UHGV virus genome: UHGV-1580203
Direction: 5' to 3' (one strand)
Origin: a virus
Length of the DNA: 11,573 bases
The notes under the pieces were generated by a model. That model saw nothing but the letters and a program-made list of their open reading frames with translations. It had not been told where the DNA came from and did no database searches. The stretch's first letter is position 1. Every line of letters begins with the position of its first letter. Shown here one piece after another: positions 1 through 9,539 of the stretch. The position numbers were made by a program, and so were the translations under genes.

Positions 1-52
1 CAACGACCTTCTAAGTCGTGGGCCGCAGGTTCGAATCCTGCAGGGCGCGCCA
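1..52 (+). tRNA. argU: tRNA-Arg(UCU), 3' portion only (5' part lies upstream of window)
   Basis: Seen: anticodon stem-loop ACGAC/CTTCTAA/GTCGT with TCT anticodon at 10-12, T-arm GGTTCGAATCC at 29-39, acceptor 3' strand GCGCGCCA ending CCA at 50-52. Matches my recollection of E. coli argU; only the 3' 52 nt are visible. Confidence 0.85.
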
Positions 53-67
53 TTACAATTCAATCAG

Positions 68-1231
68 TTACGCCTTCTTTATATCCTCCATAATTCCACA
101 GTGGGACATATTTGGGACATTATCACCAAAAATGTCGTCTATTTTCCTTGCATGCTCTGTCAAATGATTAGGCGCAAGGTGAGCATACCTACGAACCATT
201 TCTATGGACTCCCATCCGCCCATTTCCTGAAGCACAGATAATGGGACGCCTGACTGGATCAGCCAGCTTGCCCAGGTGTGTCTGAGGTCATGGAAACGGA
301 AATCTTCAATTCCTGCACGACGACAAGCTGATAGCCATGATGTCTTGCTGTCGATGCGCATCTTCCTGACCGCAGGCGTTGATGTTCCATCTGCTCGCTT
401 AGCCGCCTTGGTATGTACAAACACCCATTTGTGATGCTTGCCTATTTGATCACGCAACACTTTACAGGCGGTATCGTTCAGCGCCACACCAATGGCGCGG
501 TTTGATTTGCTCTCTTCTGGATTCACCCAGGCAACTCGTCGCTGCATGTCGATTTGTTGCCATTCCAGATTTATGATGTTCGACTTTCTCAGACCAGTTG
601 CCAGCGCAAACTTGACGACAGATTTCAGTGGTTCGGAGCACTCATCAATAAGGCGTTTTGCTTCCTCCTTTTCCAGCCATCTGACTCGCTTGTTTCTGAC
701 CGCTGGTATCTTGATGACAGGCGCTTTTTCCAGCCACTTCCAGTCGCGTTCTGCAGCACGGAGAATGGCCTTTATCATGGCAAGATGCTTTGCCTTTGTC
801 TGAGTTGATACTGGCTTTGGTTCATAAACAGGCGGTTCTTTACCTTTCCTGATGGCGGCCTGAACTTTCTGTTTCCATATTTCTTTCGTCTTTCTGTTAT
901 GCATTCTGCTTACAGCAGAGTAAATCTTTGCCTCCGAGATATCTTTAAGCCTTATACCCTCAAAATGTTCAAGCCAGAACTCAATCCGGCTTTTATCTGA
1001 ATCGAGAGATTTTTTATCAGCTTTTTCCTCAAGCCATCTTAGGCAGGCCTCTTCAAAAGTGACATCAGGTAAATCCCCTAGCTTTTCTACTCGCCAGAGT
1101 TCTGCTTTTCGCTTGTCGTGCAACTCCTGAGCTTGCCGCTTGTCCTTTGTGCCAAGAGATTCCTTAATTCGTTTCCCGCCCGGGAGCGAATACGAGGCAT
1201 ACCATATTTCATTTCTGCGGAAGAGTGACAT
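68..1231 (-). CDS. int: Tyrosine-type phage integrase (P22/DLP12 IntD-like)
   Basis: 387-aa ORF ending 15 bp from the tRNA 3' end; C-terminal [15 protein letters not shown] and RRYAHL motifs typical of tyrosine recombinase R-H-R-Y catalytic core; RBS GAGGAAA upstream of ATG at 1231; N-terminus MSLFRR...WYASY resembles P22-family Int by recollection. Confidence 0.95.
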
Positions 1232-1458
1232 TTTCTTTCCTCTGTTATGCCATCACCCGCGCTCACTTGGACAGTATGCAGCGGAGACTGAAGCGCCGCA
1301 ATGCAAGCTTGCCGTGTTGTGAGGTAAGGAGATTTTGGCTTGGTTGGATCTTTACGTGTTGCCTGTAGGCGGCCTGTTCGTATCCAGTTGGTGGCGGTTG
1401 GTCTGGATATCTTAAGAAACTGACAGGCCTCATCGAGTGTGAGGCTGTATGGCTCCAT
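1087..1458 (-). CDS. xis: Excisionase (Xis), start taken at internal Met of the 151-aa ORF
   Basis: Internal start [31 protein letters not shown], a helix-turn-helix excisionase-like N-terminus; the ATG overlaps the upstream gene stop as TAATG (1456-1460); 3' end overlaps int by about 145 nt, so C-terminal extent is uncertain. Confidence 0.7.
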
Positions 1459-1763
1459 TATTTCACCTCTTGCTGTGTCATTGTTGAAAAATGGATACCA
1501 GCTCGTTGCTGCCAGACGATCCAACCGAGAGTCATATCCCATGCCATGTATTCGTTATCGCCGTTTTTTACTCTCCGACGATCTACTAAGTCACCGAAAC
1601 GCTTTTCCATGAATAATTCATAGGCTTCGCGTTCATCTGGCTCTACTTCCAGAGATACGAGTGCGATTTCATAAGCACGGCGCTCAATATCGTCTCGAAC
1701 CTCTAGGCTGCTGATTCGTTCTTTGATTTCTTTAATCAGTTCTTTATTGGTAAATGTGGTCAT
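1458..1763 (-). CDS. yfdT: Hypothetical early protein, YfdT-like (101 aa)
   Basis: ORF of 101 aa translationally coupled on both sides (TAATG overlaps at 1761-1765 and 1456-1460); length and position match my recollection of CPS-53 yfdT; function unknown. Confidence 0.65.
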   Translation of the reverse strand: MTTFTNKELIKEIKERISSLEVRDDIERRAYEIALVSLEVEPDEREAYELFMEKRFGDLVDRRRVKNGDNEYMAWDMTLGWIVWQQRAGIHFSTMTQQEVK

Positions 1764-2125
1764 TATGCTCCAGCCTCCGGTGCTTTTGGCATTACTGCCC
1801 AGTGAGTGATATTGACGTTTTCAAGGTCCCCGACCTGAAATGTCCACTGCCATTCTCCGGTTTCTTTTTGTCCCCAGGTGTACCAGAGAGAACGCCAGCC
1901 AATCAGCCAGCCTTCTCCATTAGCATCAAATAACAGAACACTTTCATTTGCTGGTGGCAGTTCAGCTGACACTGGTATTATTTTGTTTTCCAGTGCCGCA
2001 CATTTAGCTTCAAGCGCGTCGAATTTACGTAACAGGTACTCAGCATTTGTTTCATTCACTTTCAGATCTCGCGGTACACATTTCCCGCGAAGAAACCCTT
2101 CCATTTCGAAAACATTCATGCGCAT
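1763..2125 (-). CDS. yfdS: Hypothetical early protein, YfdS-like (120 aa)
   Basis: 120-aa ORF in the same operon, Trp-rich C-terminal half; overlaps the upstream gene by 10 nt; length and order match my recollection of yfdS; function unknown. Confidence 0.65.
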   Translation of the reverse strand: MRMNVFEMEGFLRGKCVPRDLKVNETNAEYLLRKFDALEAKCAALENKIIPVSAELPPANESVLLFDANGEGWLIGWRSLWYTWGQKETGEWQWTFQVGDLENVNITHWAVMPKAPEAGA

Positions 2126-2652
2126 TTGCGTAACTCCGATAAATCGTTAAAACGTTCCATAAACATCCCGTAGGCATGACCCGGTGCCAGTGGAATCACG
2201 TTGAACATCTCTGTTGCCGGGATGCCTTCCAGTACAGGCCAGAAAGAGCCATCATCAAGCCCGAGATCGCGGCGTTCGGTTGCCAGCATGATGAGATCGG
2301 CATATTTCACGGGTGTACTCATAACTGGGGGTAACCCGTATTCCTCACGGATTACGGCGTCTATTTTTTCTTCCATCCGTTTATAGTCAGGAAGAAGGCG
2401 TTTCAGTGGTGCGGGAATGTCCTGGCAATACGCTTCTGTTGCATCATGCATTAACGCTTCAAAAGCAAATTCCTGCGGCACCAGCTGGCTGCAAAGAACC
2501 GCATGTTGGGCGACGCTGTAGAAGTGCGAAAGATGACCGGCAAAGCGACAGATATTTGAAAGGGAAACCGCGATATCGTTAATATCGATGTCGTCTTTAT
2601 TTATCTTGTCATAATAAAAATGCTTCCCGGAAAAAGTTTTAATAAATGACAT
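2116..2652 (-). CDS. yfdR: HD-domain phosphohydrolase (YfdR/YfbR-like 5'-deoxynucleotidase family), start at Met10 of the listed ORF
   Basis: Contains H...H and MHDATE (HD) metal-binding motifs; RBS GGAGAACAAA immediately upstream of the ATG at 2652 gives a 178-aa product; the longer ORF start at 2679 lacks an RBS. Confidence 0.8.
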   Translation of the reverse strand: MSFIKTFSGKHFYYDKINKDDIDINDIAVSLSNICRFAGHLSHFYSVAQHAVLCSQLVPQEFAFEALMHDATEAYCQDIPAPLKRLLPDYKRMEEKIDAVIREEYGLPPVMSTPVKYADLIMLATERRDLGLDDGSFWPVLEGIPATEMFNVIPLAPGHAYGMFMERFNDLSELRKCA

Positions 2653-2745
2653 TTTGTTCTCCACGTATATGCACTGCACCGCGCTGAATTCTGGTAAAAG
2701 GAAGCCCTCACCATCCGGTGATTATTGAGTTAATTACGTTTCCAT

Positions 2746-2767
2746 AAATGCCCCCGCAGGGGCATTT
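2746..2767. other. Intergenic 9-bp perfect hairpin (AAATGCCCC-CGCA-GGGGCATTT) without U-tract, between yfdQ-like and yfdR-like genes
   Basis: Seen directly; no T-run on either strand, so not a canonical intrinsic terminator. Confidence 0.5.
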
Positions 2768-2779
2768 GCAGTAATGAAA

Positions 2780-3604
2780 TCAGGCGGTGAAAGTACCAAT
2801 AAAGGTTTCTACTTTGCTGTCTTTGAATTTCTCAACAAGCAGATCACGAAATTCGTTAGCCATTTCTTCCTGCACCGCTTCCAGCTGAATAATGCGCAGA
2901 ACCAGTACAGGACGATCGCCAGTGATAATGCTGAGGCGTAATTTAAACGGACGTTCTTTCAGACCTTCAAACGGAACGCATTTAAATTCAAATGCCACTG
3001 GCATAATGTCTTTGGTCTTCGCTTCGACAGACTCCATCAGGGAGCGTTTGCCGCTGAAGTCATTATCTTCAAAATCAGCGGTCTGGTTTGCTTCAATCGT
3101 GATTTTACGGACTGCCGCAGCCGCTTTTGTTGCTTGAATGGCGTCACCATTAGCATCAAAGCCCACAAGGTAGTCGGCCCAGTCTTCGATCCATTCTGCC
3201 AGTGACCTCTGGGAGTTACGCTCGCCGTTAACAGACAACAGAGCAGAGAACGGTGCTGTCTTTTTCAGTTTGAGAGTGGCAGTGTTATCTGCGTGACCTG
3301 GCTCATCAATAGTACCCAGGTTAAGCACACTGACGGCACGCATATTATCGGCATCGATAAAGCAGCGGGTGCCTTCATCTGCAAGATCTTTAGAATAACG
3401 GGTAAAATCATCGATGCTGGCAGTGGAAAGTGCACCACGGAAACGGAAGCGATTTAAATTAAATTTTTCCAGATCATGAATGCGGAAATTCTCAGGCAAT
3501 GCCACAGCATCGGCACCAATCTTACTGATAATTTCATTAACACCCTGAGCAGAAATAAGGGCATGGATTTGATTAATTGCGGTTGCGTCTAAGTTCTGAG
3601 ACAT
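2780..3604 (-). CDS. yfdQ: Hypothetical phage protein, YfdQ-like (DUF2303-type by recollection), 274 aa
   Basis: 274-aa ORF with RBS GAGGA about 9 nt upstream of the ATG at 3604; N-terminus [21 protein letters not shown] matches what I recall for E. coli YfdQ; function unknown. Confidence 0.8.
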
Positions 3605-3669
3605 AATAAGTCCTCACTATATAAAGATATTCAGTGATGAGATAAATAATCAGTTTATTACGAACGATA

Positions 3670-4032
3670 TTAACGACCTGCTGCGCGGAGTTTTCCGTCA
3701 GGTTCACCGGCAAGAGTCAGTAATTGTCCCTGGTCTTCCTGCAGAATAGTCAGGCGACCACCGCGATTGACATACATCGGCGTTTCGGTGGTGTCTTCTT
3801 CGGAAATTTTCCCGCGGTTAGTTGGGCGAACATATGAGAGTTTGTGTTTGATTTTCACACGGTTCTCATCAAACGGTTCGATTTCCAGATTGAGTGAGAC
3901 CTTCCCTTTGGTTTTCGTGTTCATCACACCGGAAGCGACCTCACTGAGAACTGCGCCGATTTTGGTTTCAAATACGCCGCCGTCCAGCTCCCCGATAAAT
4001 GCCTGCACATCAGTACTGCGTTCGCTAGCCAT
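3670..4032 (-). CDS. yfdP: Hypothetical phage protein, YfdP-like (120 aa), start at internal Met of the 182-aa ORF
   Basis: Internal start MASERSTDVQ preceded by RBS AGGAG with 7-nt spacing; the upstream 62 codons of the listed ORF are GC-rich and not protein-like; 120-aa length matches recollection of yfdP. Confidence 0.65.
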   Translation of the reverse strand: MASERSTDVQAFIGELDGGVFETKIGAVLSEVASGVMNTKTKGKVSLNLEIEPFDENRVKIKHKLSYVRPTNRGKISEEDTTETPMYVNRGGRLTILQEDQGQLLTLAGEPDGKLRAAGR

Positions 4033-4080
4033 TTTGCTGCTCCTCATCATATCGACCCTGCAAGGTCGGTTGGTTTCTCC

Positions 4081-4169
4081 ACAAAACAGAGAAGAACACC
4101 TGCGGTGGCAGCCGCCCGGATGGATTGGGTTATGAGCCCGTCGTCCGGTGATGCTCTTCTCTGTTTTGT
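4081..4169. repeat. Long imperfect inverted repeat (18-bp arms, one mismatch) flanking a 53-bp GC-rich core
   Basis: Seen: 4081-4098 ACAAAACAGAGAAGAACA versus reverse complement of 4152-4169 (ACAAAACAGAGAAGAGCA); on the minus-strand RNA the mismatch becomes a G-U wobble, giving an 18-bp stem; inner segment has CCGGA/TCCGG pairing. Confidence 0.6.
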
Positions 4170-4460
4170 AAAAAGAGCGGTGCCAGCCGGAAGCAAGTGT
4201 ACAAACTGGTACCGCCAAAGCAGTGGCTGTTGTGGTGCCGGGTGCCTCCCGGTGCCTGGCGAAGGTTGCACACCAGGCGGGTGGGTATCCACAGAAGGTC
4301 GACTGTCAGCCTCAACCTTAACCCGCGTGCGCTGAGCCGCATTCACCACAACGCTAAGGATTCTCTCTGGTTGAAAATACTTAGCTGTTATGTGCCTGCT
4401 TTTAGCCACATCAGGCGAGGTGGACCTGGTTATTCCCCAACAACAAGGATTCGGTTAATC

Positions 4461-4489
4461 TTGATACCCCCAATAACATGGTGATTATT
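4461..4489 (+). promoter_or_regulatory. Candidate promoter for the 167-aa plus-strand gene (-35-like TTGATA, A/T-rich -10-like GATTAT/TTATTT)
   Basis: TTGATA at 4461-4466 and a -10-like hexamer 16-18 bp downstream, ending a few bp before the ATG at 4494 (transcript would be near-leaderless); by eye only. Confidence 0.3.
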
Positions 4490-4493
4490 TAAG

Positions 4494-4997
4494 ATGGACA
4501 AATTTGATAGAAGTGCACAAAGGCAGTTGTTACAAATACTGTATGATGCTCATCCTTATGAAATTTCTGATGATGCGTTGCAGTCTGTTCGTGACGCATT
4601 TGGAGATGATAATGTCCTAATTTCGAACTTAATTTATCTCGAAGAACATGGCTTGATTAAGAATGCTCTTGATTATTACTTGGATGGCATAAATATAAAT
4701 ATTCCTGAATTAAGAATTACTAAAGATGGAATTGATTTCATTCGTGATGATGGAGGTCTTAAAGCTATTCTTGGGATTATGACAATAAGATTGCATGATG
4801 AGACTCTCTGTGAACTTGAACGTATCATCAATAGTTCTACTTCTGCCACGACTGAAGATAAGAAGAAATTACTCTCTCAGCTTCGAACGCTTCCTGCCGA
4901 CGCCATAAAACAGCTGACGATTCGATTACTTGGTCAGGGGCTTGACCATCTGCCGGACGTATTTCACGTAATTCAAAAAGCCCTCCATTCTCTGTAA
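4494..4997 (+). CDS. Orphan 167-aa protein, unknown function (AT-rich moron in the immunity-adjacent slot)
   Basis: Uninterrupted 167-codon frame through visibly A/T-rich DNA with A/T-ending codons, opposite in orientation to the flanking early-left operon; followed by a plus-strand intrinsic terminator at 5175-5198; no family recognised. Confidence 0.6.
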   Translation: MDKFDRSAQRQLLQILYDAHPYEISDDALQSVRDAFGDDNVLISNLIYLEEHGLIKNALDYYLDGININIPELRITKDGIDFIRDDGGLKAILGIMTIRLHDETLCELERIINSSTSATTEDKKKLLSQLRTLPADAIKQLTIRLLGQGLDHLPDVFHVIQKALHSL

Positions 4998-5130
4998 ATT
5001 CTGATTCTGGTCGGATTAGACAGAATCGTCCCCATCCGACCTGCTTACTAAGTAGAATCCAGAATTCGTCTTGTTGGTTGGTGCTGATAAAAAATCCATT
5101 AGGATGAACGTAAGCACAGAATATGACCAT
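4837..5130 (-). CDS. Possible small protein (97 aa) antisense-overlapping the 3' end of the 167-aa gene; uncertain
   Basis: ATG at 5130 preceded by AAAGAGGGTTCT (GAGGG RBS, about 5-nt spacing); first ORF downstream of the putative pL; overlaps the convergent gene by about 160 nt, so it may be a shadow ORF. Confidence 0.25.
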   Translation of the reverse strand: MVIFCAYVHPNGFFISTNQQDEFWILLSKQVGWGRFCLIRPESEFTENGGLFELREIRPADGQAPDQVIESSAVLWRRQEAFEAERVISSYLQSWQK

Positions 5131-5159
5131 AGAACCCTCTTTTGTTACGGGGATACTAA

Positions 5160-5174
5160 GATTGTTAAAGAGCT
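5160..5174 (-). promoter_or_regulatory. boxA-like element (AGCTCTTTAACAATC on minus strand) immediately 3' of the antisense hairpin
   Basis: Minus-strand sequence GCTCTTTAACAAT is a 13-nt contiguous match to the rrn-type boxA consensus as I recall it (TGCTCTTTAACAATTTATCA); lies on the pL-transcribed strand directly after the 5198-5175 hairpin. Confidence 0.45.
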
Positions 5175-5198
5175 AAGCGTCCTGTAGGGCGCTTTTTT
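5175..5198 (+). terminator. Rho-independent terminator for the 167-aa gene transcript
   Basis: Stem AAGCGTCC (5175-5182) / GGGCGCTT (5187-5194) with one G-U pair, loop TGTA, then run of six T (5193-5198). Confidence 0.6.
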
Positions 5199-5364
5199 GT
5201 TGCTAACGAATCATCCTGGACTTCATATGCCCCAGGCGGCTACTTCGTGGGCGTCCTGCCTGTTCGTTTTTGACATTTACTGACTGCTTACGACACATGC
5301 ACCGTGTTGCAACCAGATTTTGTTGTAATCCTGTAGTTGGTCTGGAACAAAAGATAAAATTAAA

Positions 5365-5401
5365 TTGCGAGATATGCAAGTGATATTTGCGAGATATGCA
5401 A
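5365..5401. promoter_or_regulatory. OL-like operator pair: two identical 15-bp sites TTGCGAGATATGCAA separated by 7 bp, with overlapping leftward promoter (pL-like)
   Basis: Seen: exact direct repeat at 5365-5379 and 5387-5401; same TTGCGNGATANGCAA pattern as the site at 6169-6183 in the cI-cro intergenic region; minus-strand TTGCAT -35-like hexamers lie within the sites. Confidence 0.6.
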
Positions 5402-5410
5402 ATTTATAGG

Positions 5411-5435
5411 TAATAAAAAGCCACCTTTCGGTGGC
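5411..5435 (-). terminator. Rho-independent terminator downstream of cI
   Basis: On minus-strand RNA: GCCACC-GAAA-GGUGGC (6-bp stem, GNRA-type tetraloop) followed by UUUUUAUUA; 20 nt downstream of the cI stop. Confidence 0.65.
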
Positions 5436-5455
5436 CGATGGATGGGATATTGAGG

Positions 5456-6148
5456 TTAATTATGTCTCTTAAGGGTTTGCGACTGACTGATTAAGACCTT
5501 TCCAAAGACCATGAATCGGTGTTCGTTTTCGCTAGTAATTCCCCATTCACGGTAAATCTGGTTATCAGAAATCACCAGCAGTTTGTCAGGAATCATTTGA
5601 AGTCTTTTAACGTATATTTTGTCATCAAAACCAAAGACATATATACCATCACCATCAAACTGATTGATGCTGACATCAACGAAGATGAGATCTCCTGGCT
5701 CAATGGTTGGACACATACTGTCCCCACGAACGTTGATAACTTTGATGTGATTGGCTGGTCGTCCGCCGAACATTGATACAGCATTATCAGTTCTGTATTC
5801 GATGGCATGAATCACATCAATGACATCACCGCCCTGGATAAGGCCATTTCCCGCACTGGCACTGATATCCAGCATTTCAATACGGAACACATCCTTCACC
5901 TGCGCAACATCCTCATTATTACTGTTTTTATATACAGTATTACTTTTGTGGGCAGAGGTAAAGAGATCAGCAATATCAACACCTAAGCTCTTGGCAATAT
6001 TACTCAGTGTTTGTTCGGTAAATTGTTTTTGCTTACCCGTTTCTAAGCGCGAGATGTTCGCCGCATCTACTCCTATCGCTTCAGCGAGATCGGCGATTTT
6101 CATGTTCTTCGCTTGGCGAAGTTGTCTGACTCGGTTTCCTATGTTCAT
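5456..6148 (-). CDS. cI: CI-type prophage repressor (N-terminal HTH, C-terminal LexA-like S24 autopeptidase domain)
   Basis: 230 aa; N-terminal HTH (VRQLRQAKNMKIADLAEAIGVDAANISRLETGK); C-terminal GDSM (catalytic Ser) and VKRL (catalytic Lys) motifs of the S24 family; divergent from a cro-like gene. Confidence 0.93.
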   Translation of the reverse strand: MNIGNRVRQLRQAKNMKIADLAEAIGVDAANISRLETGKQKQFTEQTLSNIAKSLGVDIADLFTSAHKSNTVYKNSNNEDVAQVKDVFRIEMLDISASAGNGLIQGGDVIDVIHAIEYRTDNAVSMFGGRPANHIKVINVRGDSMCPTIEPGDLIFVDVSINQFDGDGIYVFGFDDKIYVKRLQMIPDKLLVISDNQIYREWGITSENEHRFMVFGKVLISQSQTLKRHN

Positions 6149-7385: not shown

Positions 7386-7405
7386 AGGTCGGTCATGAGC
7401 ACTAA
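7226..7405 (+). CDS. Candidate small protein (about 59 aa, TTG start) in an alternative frame, not in the supplied ORF track
   Basis: RBS GAAGGAGA at 7211-7218 then TTG at 7226; frame reads [59 protein letters not shown] to stop at 7403-7405; protein-like composition; overlaps the O-like start by 11 nt. Confidence 0.35.
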
Positions 7406-8336
7406 ATTAACCGGCTATGTATGGGATGGTTGCGCTGCATCAGGCATGAAATTATCCAGCGTGGCAATTATGGCCCGCCTGGCTGATTTCAGTAATGACG
7501 AAGGTGTGTGTTGGCCATCAATTGAAACCATTGCCCGTCAGATTGGCGCGGGGATGAGTACCGTCAGGACGGCTATCGCACGGCTGGAAGCAGAAGGCTG
7601 GTTAACGCGTAAGGCGCGTCGCCAGGGTAACCGCAATGCGTCGAATGTTTATCAGCTTAACGTTGCGAAGCTTCAGGCAGCGGCATTTTCTCAACTGTCA
7701 GATTCTGACCCGTCAAAATCTGACGCATCAAAATCTGACCCGTCAAAATTTGATGCGTCGAAATCTGGCAAAAAAGCGGGTTTTCACCCGTCAGAATCTG
7801 GCGGGGATCCGTCAGTAAAATCAAAACATGATCCGTCAGATAAAAAACCTTCTCGTCCGGACGCTTCGCAACCGGACACGCAGACGGATGAACAGGATTT
7901 TTTAACTCGCCATCCTGATGCGGTTGTATTCAGCCCTAAAAAGCGCCATTGGGGAACGCAGGATGATTTGACCTGCGCACAGTGGCTCTGGAAAAAAATC
8001 ATCGCCCTGTACGAGCAAGCCGCCGAATGTGACGGCGAGGTGGTTCGTCCCAAAGAACCGAACTGGACAGCCTGGGCAAACGAAATTCGCCTGATGTGTG
8101 TGCAGGATGGTCGTACTCACAAACAAATCTGCGAGATGTACAGCCGCGTCAGCCGCGATCCGTTCTGGTGCCGTAACGTGCTCAGCCCGTCGAAGTTGCG
8201 GGAAAAATGGGATGAGCTTTCCCTGCGCTTATCACCGTCCGTCAGCACGTACACCGAAAAACGCGAAGACCCGTACTTCAAATCCAGTTACGACAACGTG
8301 GACTACAGCCAGATCCCGGCAGGATTCAGGGGGTGA
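7395..8336 (+). CDS. Replication initiator protein (lambda O-like architecture: N-terminal HTH domain, iteron-encoded linker, C-terminal domain)
   Basis: 313 aa; N-terminal HTH-like segment (WPSIETIARQIGAGMSTVRTAIARLEAEGWL); central low-complexity linker encoded by tandem DNA repeats (see ori feature); RBS GAGG upstream of ATG 7395. Confidence 0.85.
   Translation: MSTKLTGYVWDGCAASGMKLSSVAIMARLADFSNDEGVCWPSIETIARQIGAGMSTVRTAIARLEAEGWLTRKARRQGNRNASNVYQLNVAKLQAAAFSQLSDSDPSKSDASKSDPSKFDASKSGKKAGFHPSESGGDPSVKSKHDPSDKKPSRPDASQPDTQTDEQDFLTRHPDAVVFSPKKRHWGTQDDLTCAQWLWKKIIALYEQAAECDGEVVRPKEPNWTAWANEIRLMCVQDGRTHKQICEMYSRVSRDPFWCRNVLSPSKLREKWDELSLRLSPSVSTYTEKREDPYFKSSYDNVDYSQIPAGFRG
7690..7850. repeat. 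Origin-like iteron array inside the initiator gene: four to five 15-bp tandem repeats (TCTGACSSRTCAAAA) followed by spaced GATCCGTCAG repeats and an A-rich tract
   Basis: Seen: units at 7705-7719, 7720-7734, 7735-7749, 7750-7764 and degenerate 7765-7779; CCGTCAG at 7789-7795, 7810-7816, 7834-7840; ATAAAAAA at 7841-7848. Lambda ori likewise lies within O as iterons plus an A/T-rich region. Confidence 0.7.
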
Positions 8337-8338
8337 TC

Positions 8339-8827
8339 ATGAGTCTTTTGAATGAAGTTCAGAAATTCATTGAAGCCCATCCGGGATGTACTTCCGGAGA
8401 CATTGCGGATGCTTTTGCAGGTTACTCACGGCAGCGCGTTCTGCAGTCAGCAAGCAAGTTACGTCAGAGTGGGCGTGTGGCTCACCGTTGTGAAGGAGAT
8501 ACACGCAGACATTTCCCGCGCCTGACTGAGAGAGCGCAGGAACCGGAACCACAACCAGTTCGAGAAACCAGACCTGTGCGCAATTTCTATGTCGGCACTA
8601 ACGATCCACGGGTGATTTTGTGCCTGACCCGCCAGGCTGAAGAACTGGAGTCCAGGGGCTTATACCGTCGTGCTGCAACCGTGTGGATGGCGGCATTCCG
8701 TGAAAGCCACTCCCAGCCAGAACGAAACAATTTTCTGGCGCGTCGTGAGCGGTGCTTACGGAAAAGCAGCAAGCGCGCTGCATCGGGTGAAGAGTGGTAT
8801 CTGTCAGGGAATTACGTGGGGGCTTAA
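8339..8827 (+). CDS. Hypothetical protein with C-terminal PerC-like motif (putative transcriptional regulator)
   Basis: Start taken at ATG 8339 (RBS AGGGGG; GTG 8333 also possible); C-terminal GLYRRAATVWMAAFRESHSQPERNNFLARRERC resembles the PerC-family signature as I recall it; family call is tentative. Confidence 0.6.
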   Translation: MSLLNEVQKFIEAHPGCTSGDIADAFAGYSRQRVLQSASKLRQSGRVAHRCEGDTRRHFPRLTERAQEPEPQPVRETRPVRNFYVGTNDPRVILCLTRQAEELESRGLYRRAATVWMAAFRESHSQPERNNFLARRERCLRKSSKRAASGEEWYLSGNYVGA

Positions 8828-9153
8828 TGACGACGTTAACTCAATGCCAGCAGCAGGTGCTGGATATGCTGATTTCTTACCAGAAAGAACGTGGCTTCCC
8901 GCCAACCAATCAGGAGGTGGCTACCATGCTGGGATACCGTTCAGTGAATGCAGCGGTGGAGCATCTTCGCGCACTGGAGAAAAAAGGCGTCATCACGATA
9001 AAGCGTGGCGTGGCCCGGGGCATCACGCTTCATACCGCGGTGAAGGACGACGACAGCGAGGTGGCCGGGATTATCCGCGCACTGCTTGCTGGTGAGGAAA
9101 ACGCCAGGCTGCGTGCAGCCCACTGGTTACATGAGAGGGGGCTGAAAGTATGA
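8827..9153 (+). CDS. LexA N-terminal DNA-binding-domain protein lacking the S24 peptidase domain (108 aa)
   Basis: LTQCQQQVLDMLISYQKERGFPPTNQEVATMLGYRSVNAAVEHLRALEKKGVITIKRGVARGITL closely parallels the LexA winged-helix N-domain (LTxRQxEV...GxPPTRxEIAxxLGFRSPNAAEEHLKALxRKGVIEI); start ATG 8827 overlaps the upstream stop (TAATG); no Ser/Lys protease domain follows. Confidence 0.75.
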   Translation: MTTLTQCQQQVLDMLISYQKERGFPPTNQEVATMLGYRSVNAAVEHLRALEKKGVITIKRGVARGITLHTAVKDDDSEVAGIIRALLAGEENARLRAAHWLHERGLKV

Positions 9154-9539
9154 AGCTGATTCTGCCTTTTCCACCCAGCGTGAATACCTACTGGCGACAC
9201 CCCAACAAAGTGGCATTTGCTGGTAAGAGCCTGATAAGCGCGGCGGGGCGAAAATTCCAGAGTGCGGCGTGCACAGCAATAGTTGAGCAGTTACGTCGTC
9301 TGCCGAAACCAACGTCGGCACCTGCTTCAGTGGAGATCGTGTTGTTTCCTCCGGATAACCGGATCCGCGATCTGGACAACTATAACAAGGCGCTGTTTGA
9401 CGCCCTGACCCACGCGGGTGTGTGGGAAGACGACAGCCAGGTGAAAAGAATGCTGGTGGAGTGGGGACCGGTTATCCCGGAAGGGAAGGTCGAGATCACT
9501 ATCAGTAAGTACGAGAAAACGGCGGGTGCAGCCGCCTGA
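9150..9539 (+). CDS. rusA: RusA-family Holliday junction resolvase
   Basis: 129 aa; RIRDLDNYNKALFDALTHAGVWEDDSQV matches the RusA catalytic-region signature (RxRDLDN...FDAL...DD); ATGA overlap with the upstream stop. Confidence 0.88.
   Translation: MKLILPFPPSVNTYWRHPNKVAFAGKSLISAAGRKFQSAACTAIVEQLRRLPKPTSAPASVEIVLFPPDNRIRDLDNYNKALFDALTHAGVWEDDSQVKRMLVEWGPVIPEGKVEITISKYEKTAGAAA

Follow-up and report, generated by a model that had tools for sequence, protein, structure and literature searches.

Gene content of the locus

We analysed a stretch of 11,573 nt of viral DNA (UHGV virus genome UHGV-1580203), referred to here as the 11.6-kb window, which covers the part of a lambdoid prophage devoted to integration, early functions and immunity. 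The phages PhiR29_1, SfII, SfIV, SfV and mEp460 are 94-98% identical to the window over 60-80% of its length. At the left edge lies the 3' part of a tRNA gene, presumably the attachment site; ARAGORN reported no complete tRNA in the window. The left operon then runs int, xis, two small ORFs, an HD-domain phosphohydrolase gene directly downstream of yfdQ, yfdQ itself and yfdP (Table 1). The order matches that of the original prediction, made from the DNA letters, apart from the number of small ORFs between xis and the HD gene, which had been given as three.

Table 1. Coordinates of features in the 11.6-kb window
Feature	Position	Strand	Remarks
tRNA gene, 3' part	1-49		Abuts integrase gene; Rfam tRNA, 36 bits, cut by window edge
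int	68-1231	-	
xis	about 1087-1461	-	HTH_17 excisionase
101-aa ORF	between xis and 120-aa DUF551 gene	-	
120-aa DUF551 protein	between 101-aa ORF and HD gene	-	
yfdR-like HD-domain phosphohydrolase	2116..2679	-	phrog_318, E 1e-110; weak Pfam YfbR-like match
yfdQ	2780..3604	-	274 aa; stand-alone DUF2303 (PF10065) / phrog_210
Shine-Dalgarno GAGGA	3611..3615	-	6 nt before yfdQ ATG; read from sequence
yfdP	3670..4032	-	120 aa; phrog_204; PF27127 from precomputed annotation
Shine-Dalgarno AGGAG	4040..4044	-	7 nt before yfdP ATG at 4032; read from sequence
Region directly upstream of yfdP	4047-4440		About 400 nt
167-aa gene	4494-4997	+	phrog_3983, E 3e-59; antisense, between cI and yfdP
cI-type repressor	5456..6148	-	HTH + S24 peptidase (Pfam); marks immunity region
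O-like initiator gene	7395-8336		Right operon
Tandem array	7704-7767		Inside O-like initiator gene
119-aa protein	8794-9153	+	Next to RusA
RusA	9150-9539		Right operon
Chi GCTGGTGG	1950..1957, 6697, 9452, 10589, 10860	+	Five of the window's six
Chi GCTGGTGG	10989	-	Sixth of the window

Both yfdQ and yfdP are real genes. The minus-strand ORFs of 274 and 120 aa had been placed correctly by the original prediction, and each has a good ribosome binding site and a strong family match. YfdQ matched DUF2303 in Pfam over residues 7-272 of 274 (E 2e-92; 309.4 bits against a cut-off of 26.6) and phrog_210 (E 7e-120), and YfdP matched phrog_204 (E 1e-49); the PF27127 assignment of YfdP is recorded on cluster representatives 98-99% identical to the window protein. 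At the same level of identity (98-99%) the two proteins correspond to the E. coli 'YfdQ family protein' and 'protein YfdP', labels that the matches in E. coli genomes carry from PGAP. The yfdP start is an internal ATG of a longer ORF of 182 aa, and the placement of AGGAG favours the 120-aa start over the longer reading frame. The window YfdQ retains the motifs conserved across diverse family members (R..RFRG, PGH, Q132, E140-D141-W142, R166 and R223).

The E. coli K-12 prophage CPS-53 (KpLE1), whose genes are yfdP-yfdQ(-yfdR-yfdS-yfdT), encodes proteins 98-99% identical to those of the window and shares its gene order: yfdP, yfdQ, HD gene, DUF551 gene, small ORF, xis, and int by a tRNA gene. 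CPS-53 is defective and truncated upstream of yfdP, whereas the immunity and replication regions of the window are intact. YfdP and YfdQ of phages ST64B and phiNP are more distant, at only 57-60% identity to those of the window.

yfdP and yfdQ are obligately linked

In the window the two genes are separated by 65 nt, with yfdP upstream on the same strand. Outside the window this arrangement held at all 182 testable loci: 79 of 79 species-level genome loci, 95 of 95 viral contigs from Vibrio-like and Pseudomonas-like clades, and 8 of 8 diverse phage genomes. The 79 loci were taken from one genome per species with upstream DNA present and spanned Enterobacterales, Marinobacter, Hahella, Alcanivorax and others. 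The viral contigs were collected with single distant proteins as queries. A tblastn search of a phage collection likewise gave 184 records for YfdQ and 180 for YfdP, distributed over taxa in nearly the same way. Failure to co-occur had been named in advance as evidence against a functional pair; the linkage we observe across genomes is obligate.

The two proteins also vary together. Pairwise-identity matrices for YfdP and YfdQ correlated at r = 0.92 overall and at r = 0.77 within Enterobacterales, where YfdQ and the product of the adjacent HD gene correlated at r = 0.51. Mosaic exchange thus seldom parts yfdP from yfdQ. We conclude that yfdP-yfdQ is a known, obligately linked two-gene cassette, with its members on the same strand and about 40-65 nt apart. 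Its carriers are phages of Gammaproteobacteria, many of them temperate and some virulent, in which it belongs to the early operons.

The cassette is abundant. The 1.25-kb pair was present at 95% nucleotide identity or above in 2,722 of 5,426 complete E. coli genomes, which places it, in half of these genomes, among the commonest phage gene cassettes without an assigned function; its carriers include Stx-converting and serotype-converting phages. The YfdQ family comprised 1,833 clusters at 50% identity (E <= 0.001), and these roughly 1,800 clusters extend across Gammaproteobacteria. The best 150 of the 1,833 clusters were all stand-alone, single-domain proteins with no fusions, and the full-length ones measured 249-302 aa. 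Three E. coli proteins (P0011, P0073 and P0160) join a YfdP N-terminus to a C-terminal part of YfdQ through in-frame deletions. We considered them as natural fusions and rejected them as deletion chimeras of decaying prophages.

The surroundings of the pair are less constant. An HD homologue lay within 4 kb on the same strand at 93 of 188 loci, making it a frequent, not an obligate, neighbour. At 56 of 80 genome loci the pair followed the immunity region with one opposite-strand gene between, as in the window. Genes for DEDD 3'-5' exonucleases (Rv2179c-like or RNase T-like) occurred near the pair, downstream of yfdQ, at 22 of 80 genome loci and on several Pseudomonas-like contigs, often together with an HD phosphohydrolase gene; in the Vibrio clade the exonuclease gene is directly upstream of yfdP.

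Protein families and predicted structures

A deep YfdQ profile searched against the PDB, together with a Pfam scan of 141 diverse members, returned only PDB entry 9O7M and DUF2303. Entry 9O7M ('YfdQ Protein') is a solved full-length homologue with 36 chains, 38% identical to YfdQ (E 1e-58 with one YfdQ profile and 3e-87 with the family profile), and it has the sequence found in Xanthomonas CP2/Olaya-type phages. Our search found no publication describing the entry and no YfdP homologue in the PDB. The 36 chains could reflect crystal packing instead of a true oligomer. YfdQ is acidic (pI 4.97, net charge about -10), as is its family (median pI 4.93).

The AF2 model of YfdQ (mean pLDDT 78) includes a beta-beta-beta-alpha element in the C-terminal part; Foldseek with this model, run against fold libraries that did not contain 9O7M, gave no PDB match at E <= 0.001. 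YfdP (mean pLDDT 75) is modelled with a long helix at the N-terminus, a sheet of three long beta strands and a C-terminal tail that is low in model confidence and conserved in sequence, and this flexible tail resembles a docking peptide. No nucleic-acid-binding fold was recognised, and NCBIfam and PADLOC gave no match to either protein. Neither fold offers a functional clue.

Motifs of the form Qxx[LM]F bind the sliding clamp. The QGQL[FL] sequence of the YfdP tail was considered as such a motif and set aside as speculation, its leading Q being kept in only 29 of 52 non-redundant YfdPs. The hydrophobic-aromatic pair [LM]F was common to 40 of the 52.

Evidence against the pair as a substitute recombination module

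The original prediction drew attention to an early-left operon lacking recognisable recombination genes. Our searches bear this out: among the ORFs of the left operon and those between yfdP and cI, Pfam, PHROGs and NCBIfam identified no SSAP, lambda-Exo/YqaJ, Gam, Abc or SSB, and RusA is the sole recombination-related gene of the window. Canonical lambdoid Rec modules (lambda exo-bet-gam; P22 erf-arf-abc1-abc2; HK620 sak4-ssb-abc2; ArgO145 gam-recT-exo-ssb) belong to the same operon as the pair, which takes the same relative position in Rec-less phages, but none of their components resembles either protein in sequence, profile or fold.

For the profile comparison we aligned a YfdQ profile (141 diverse sequences) and a YfdP profile (17 sequences) by hhalign with 17 Rec-module proteins: lambda Bet, Exo and Gam; ArgO145 RecT, Exo and Gam; P22 Erf, Arf, Abc1, Abc2 and NinB; HK620 Sak4 and SSB; a Vibrio Erf; the Olaya recombinase; DUF2815; and DUF2800. 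All probabilities were below 1%. They reached at most 0.8% for both proteins against the SSAP set (Bet, RecT, two Erf, Sak4, the Olaya recombinase and DUF2815) and 0.1% against the RecBCD inhibitors Gam and Abc2. Neither protein matched an SSAP family in Pfam or PHROG, and we found no likeness of the pair to solved SSAP folds or to a PD-(D/E)XK profile or fold of the lambda Exo/YqaJ/Cas4 kind.

Gene neighbourhoods gave a second line of evidence. In ArgO145 the order gam-recT-exo-ssb-yfdP-yfdQ is contiguous, and in Xanthomonas phage Olaya a recombinase, an exonuclease and an SSB are encoded in the operon of yfdPQ. The Vibrio clade carries erf and the genes for a YqaJ-domain protein and an RNase T-like exonuclease, followed by yfdP and yfdQ; VvAW1 has two exonuclease genes and an SSB gene near the pair; Acinetobacter phage 4316 has DUF2800-DUF2815-yfdP-yfdQ-PolA; and Burkholderia phage JC1 encodes RecT, YqaJ and a DUF2303 protein within one module. 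Elsewhere, within 8-9 kb of the pair, SSAP, Gam or Abc genes were found at 0 of 71 enterobacterial loci and on 0 of 80 Pseudomonas-like contigs, and lambda-type exonuclease genes at 0 of 71 and on 2 of 80, respectively; SSB-like matches were seen at 2 of the 71 enterobacterial loci. Occurring both with and without Rec modules, the pair is indifferent to their presence. On this evidence the yfdP-yfdQ cassette is not a substitute recombination module.

Chi sites offer a better explanation for the missing Rec module than the pair does, as sites that recruit host RecBCD. Counted in the window and in partial loci rather than over the phage's whole genome, Chi (GCTGGTGG) occurs 6 times in the 11.6 kb against 0.34 expected, a number reached in 0 of 200 shuffles, and at 52 related prophage loci its density is 5.2 per 10 kb opposite the yfdQ strand and 1.3 on the yfdQ strand. 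The whole genomes of the Rec-plus phages P22 and HK620 have 0 and 1 Chi, respectively.

A class of this kind has been described by Zheng, Casjens, Davidson, Amundsen and Smith (Genome Res 2025; PMC12315714). In that paper, Rec-less lambdoid phages make up 22% of the panel and have abundant oriented Chi, typically at least 8 per genome, and growth of the type member LLS is enhanced by host RecBCD. Among the Rec-less phages whose early-left operon it describes are LLS, ST64B, phiNP, SfV and mEp460. That our phage belongs to this Rec-less, Chi-enriched class, with recombination supplied by host RecBCD and RecA, is well supported, with the qualification that its closest complete relative, PhiR29_1, carries only 6 + 2 Chi, confined to its first 12 kb, below the usual figure for the published class. 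Our analysis independently supports the idea that Chi compensates in Rec-less lambdoid phages.

The original prediction also called such pairs under-studied. The description is fair, but the exact question had already been raised and answered in the negative: Zheng et al. name the yfbR-like, yfdQ, yfdP cluster of LLS, ST64B and phiNP and consider it unlikely to hide recombination proteins because ArgO145 has both the cluster and a full Rec module (PMC12315714). The genes, their families, their position and the recombination hypothesis are thus already in databases and the literature, together with the argument against that hypothesis, and the locus is a known, ordinary feature of phages of this type. 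What our analysis adds is a quantification of the obligate linkage, a measure of co-evolution, negative results from fold and profile comparisons, and Chi counts for many prophages that carry the pair.

Possible functions of the pair

In K-12, where yfd gene function has been studied by overexpression only, multicopy yfdQ together with yfdR and either yfdS or yfdT inhibited initiation at oriC and suppressed hda-185, a phenotype that requires yfdQ and not yfdP (PMC4776307). YfdR binds DnaA domain I; YfdQ, YfdS and YfdT bound neither YfdR nor DnaA strongly, and YfdQ gave no pull-down with either (PMC4776307). The authors themselves raise the possibility that the oriC effect is an overexpression artefact (PMC4776307). 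The same paper cites reports that deletion of yfdQ raises sensitivity to H2O2 and MMS. Production of YfdQ led to more plaques of a resident lambdoid phage (bioRxiv 10.1101/413146).

The account that we tentatively prefer, with somewhat less than even confidence in it as a whole, combines a linked cassette that is not a Rec module, use of host RecBCD through Chi, and a YfdP-YfdQ complex in replication or repair. We infer its mechanistic part as follows. YfdP and YfdQ would work together as one protein complex, in which YfdQ would form a large acidic homo-oligomer and YfdP would dock through its conserved flexible C-terminal peptide. Made early, the complex would act on DNA replication or repair and not on strand annealing; most specifically, it might help to redirect or restrain replication of the host chromosome with early proteins such as the DnaA-binding HD protein YfdR. 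Taken separately, an early YfdP-YfdQ complex acting on replication or repair, possibly in control of host replication with YfdR, strikes us as possible and rather doubtful. Only about half of the loci have the HD neighbour, and phages whose replication modules are unrelated carry the pair too, so that a role specific to YfdR cannot be general. Among the three readings in the original prediction (recombination, host takeover or accessory cargo), recombination is not supported, and host takeover draws some support from the K-12 genetics (PMC4776307). As an obligate unit that does not stand in for a missing recombinase, the two proteins should be studied jointly for replication, repair and host-interaction phenotypes.

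Two other readings seem about equally plausible to us, and both unlikely. The pair could be an accessory of recombination or replication that acts on ssDNA, SSB or fork intermediates beside a phage recombinase or host RecA/RecBCD, a helper like P22 Abc1 and Arf and not a core enzyme. Its consistent placement beside genes for SSB, DUF2815, exonucleases and SSAPs, seen in phage groups unrelated to one another, would fit such a role, as would the recurrent DEDD 3'-5' exonuclease neighbour and its presence in Rec-plus and Rec-minus phages alike. This evidence is positional, however, in early operons that are mosaics with unrelated genes side by side; YfdQ is acidic, the fold comparison recognised nothing of the nucleic-acid-binding kind, and reports of an experimental phenotype in recombination are lacking.

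The pair could instead serve counter-defence or control of host nucleases, with the acidic oligomeric YfdQ as decoy, sponge or inhibitor and YfdP as its partner or regulator. Consistent with this are the early position of the genes, the strong acidity of YfdQ, the many chains of the solved assembly (9O7M), a fold without known relatives, and a distribution that is very wide but patchy, as for accessory genes; the HD phosphohydrolase and the DEDD exonuclease encoded nearby could serve to break down nucleotide signals. Neither protein matched a characterised inhibitor, however, and the negative PADLOC result covers defence-system proteins only. An inhibitor of RecBCD would be counter-productive in Chi-dependent phages, and the Chi enrichment of the carriers, which implies that active RecBCD is in use, provides context against such inhibition by the pair. 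Unusually high conservation and constant length over about 1,800 clusters are also less typical of fast-evolving anti-defence genes.

Less likely again is a broader proposal, in which YfdP-YfdQ would be a widespread, hitherto unrecognised two-subunit machine of new fold whose conserved YfdP tail engages a conserved host hub of replication or repair such as the sliding clamp, SSB, or DnaA/DnaB loading. If true, the machine would provide portable redirection of host DNA synthesis, with or without the phage's own recombinase.

We consider it very improbable that YfdQ, YfdP or both are an unrecognised SSAP, exonuclease or mediator replacing exo/bet, erf or recT, which is the non-canonical recombination module of the original prediction. 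The pair does fill the slot just left of the immunity region in Rec-less lambdoid prophages and adjoins SSB, exonuclease or SSAP genes in other phages, MMS sensitivity has been reported for the yfdQ deletion, and the beta-beta-beta-alpha element could be read in the same sense. Against these points, every Rec protein compared gave an hhalign probability below 1%, and YfdQ is strongly acidic. The pair coexists with complete gam-recT-exo-ssb or erf-exo sets and so is no replacement for them, and Chi enrichment accounts for recombination in the Rec-less carriers; Zheng et al. reach the same verdict (PMC12315714). Least credible is a virion-associated YfdQ, which would be packaged, enter the cell along with the DNA and act at infection, as might be read from the detection by mass spectrometry of the DUF2303 protein gp10 in purified virions of Burkholderia phage JC1, a single observation that was unexpected to its authors (PMC9144972), given that the gene is in early and not late operons everywhere we examined.

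The JC1 observation also led us to consider 9O7M as a virion reconstruction, a reading that we rejected on finding that the Olaya capsid and portal proteins match other entries only.

Other features of the window

The region directly upstream of yfdP is relatively GC-rich (53%) and lacks a convincing gene; a 120-aa ORF within it has only a partial phrog_33599 match, and Rfam gave no match there. A promoter scan of positions 2500-5600 yielded nothing above background. The slot of the neighbouring 167-aa gene is variable, and PhiR29_1 carries a different gene of 243 aa in its place. A relationship of the 167-aa gene to HK620 hkaP was rejected on comparison; it may be a cargo gene expressed in lysogeny.

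Besides RusA, the products of the right operon are regulators of the Cro and CII types, an O-like initiator, a PerC-like protein, a LexA-N-domain protein, a KilA-N protein and a DUF968/HNH protein. No helicase or helicase-loader gene of the lambda P, DnaB or DnaC type was recognised between this initiator and RusA (7395-9153), and the interval holds only the PerC-like and LexA-N-domain proteins. The latter, 119 aa long, consists of a LexA DNA-binding domain alone (E 4e-19) and lacks the peptidase domain. The tandem array inside the O-like initiator gene consists of 4.3 copies of a 15-nt unit, TCTGACCCGTCAAAA; it encodes a repeated DPSKSDASKS stretch and looks like origin iterons.
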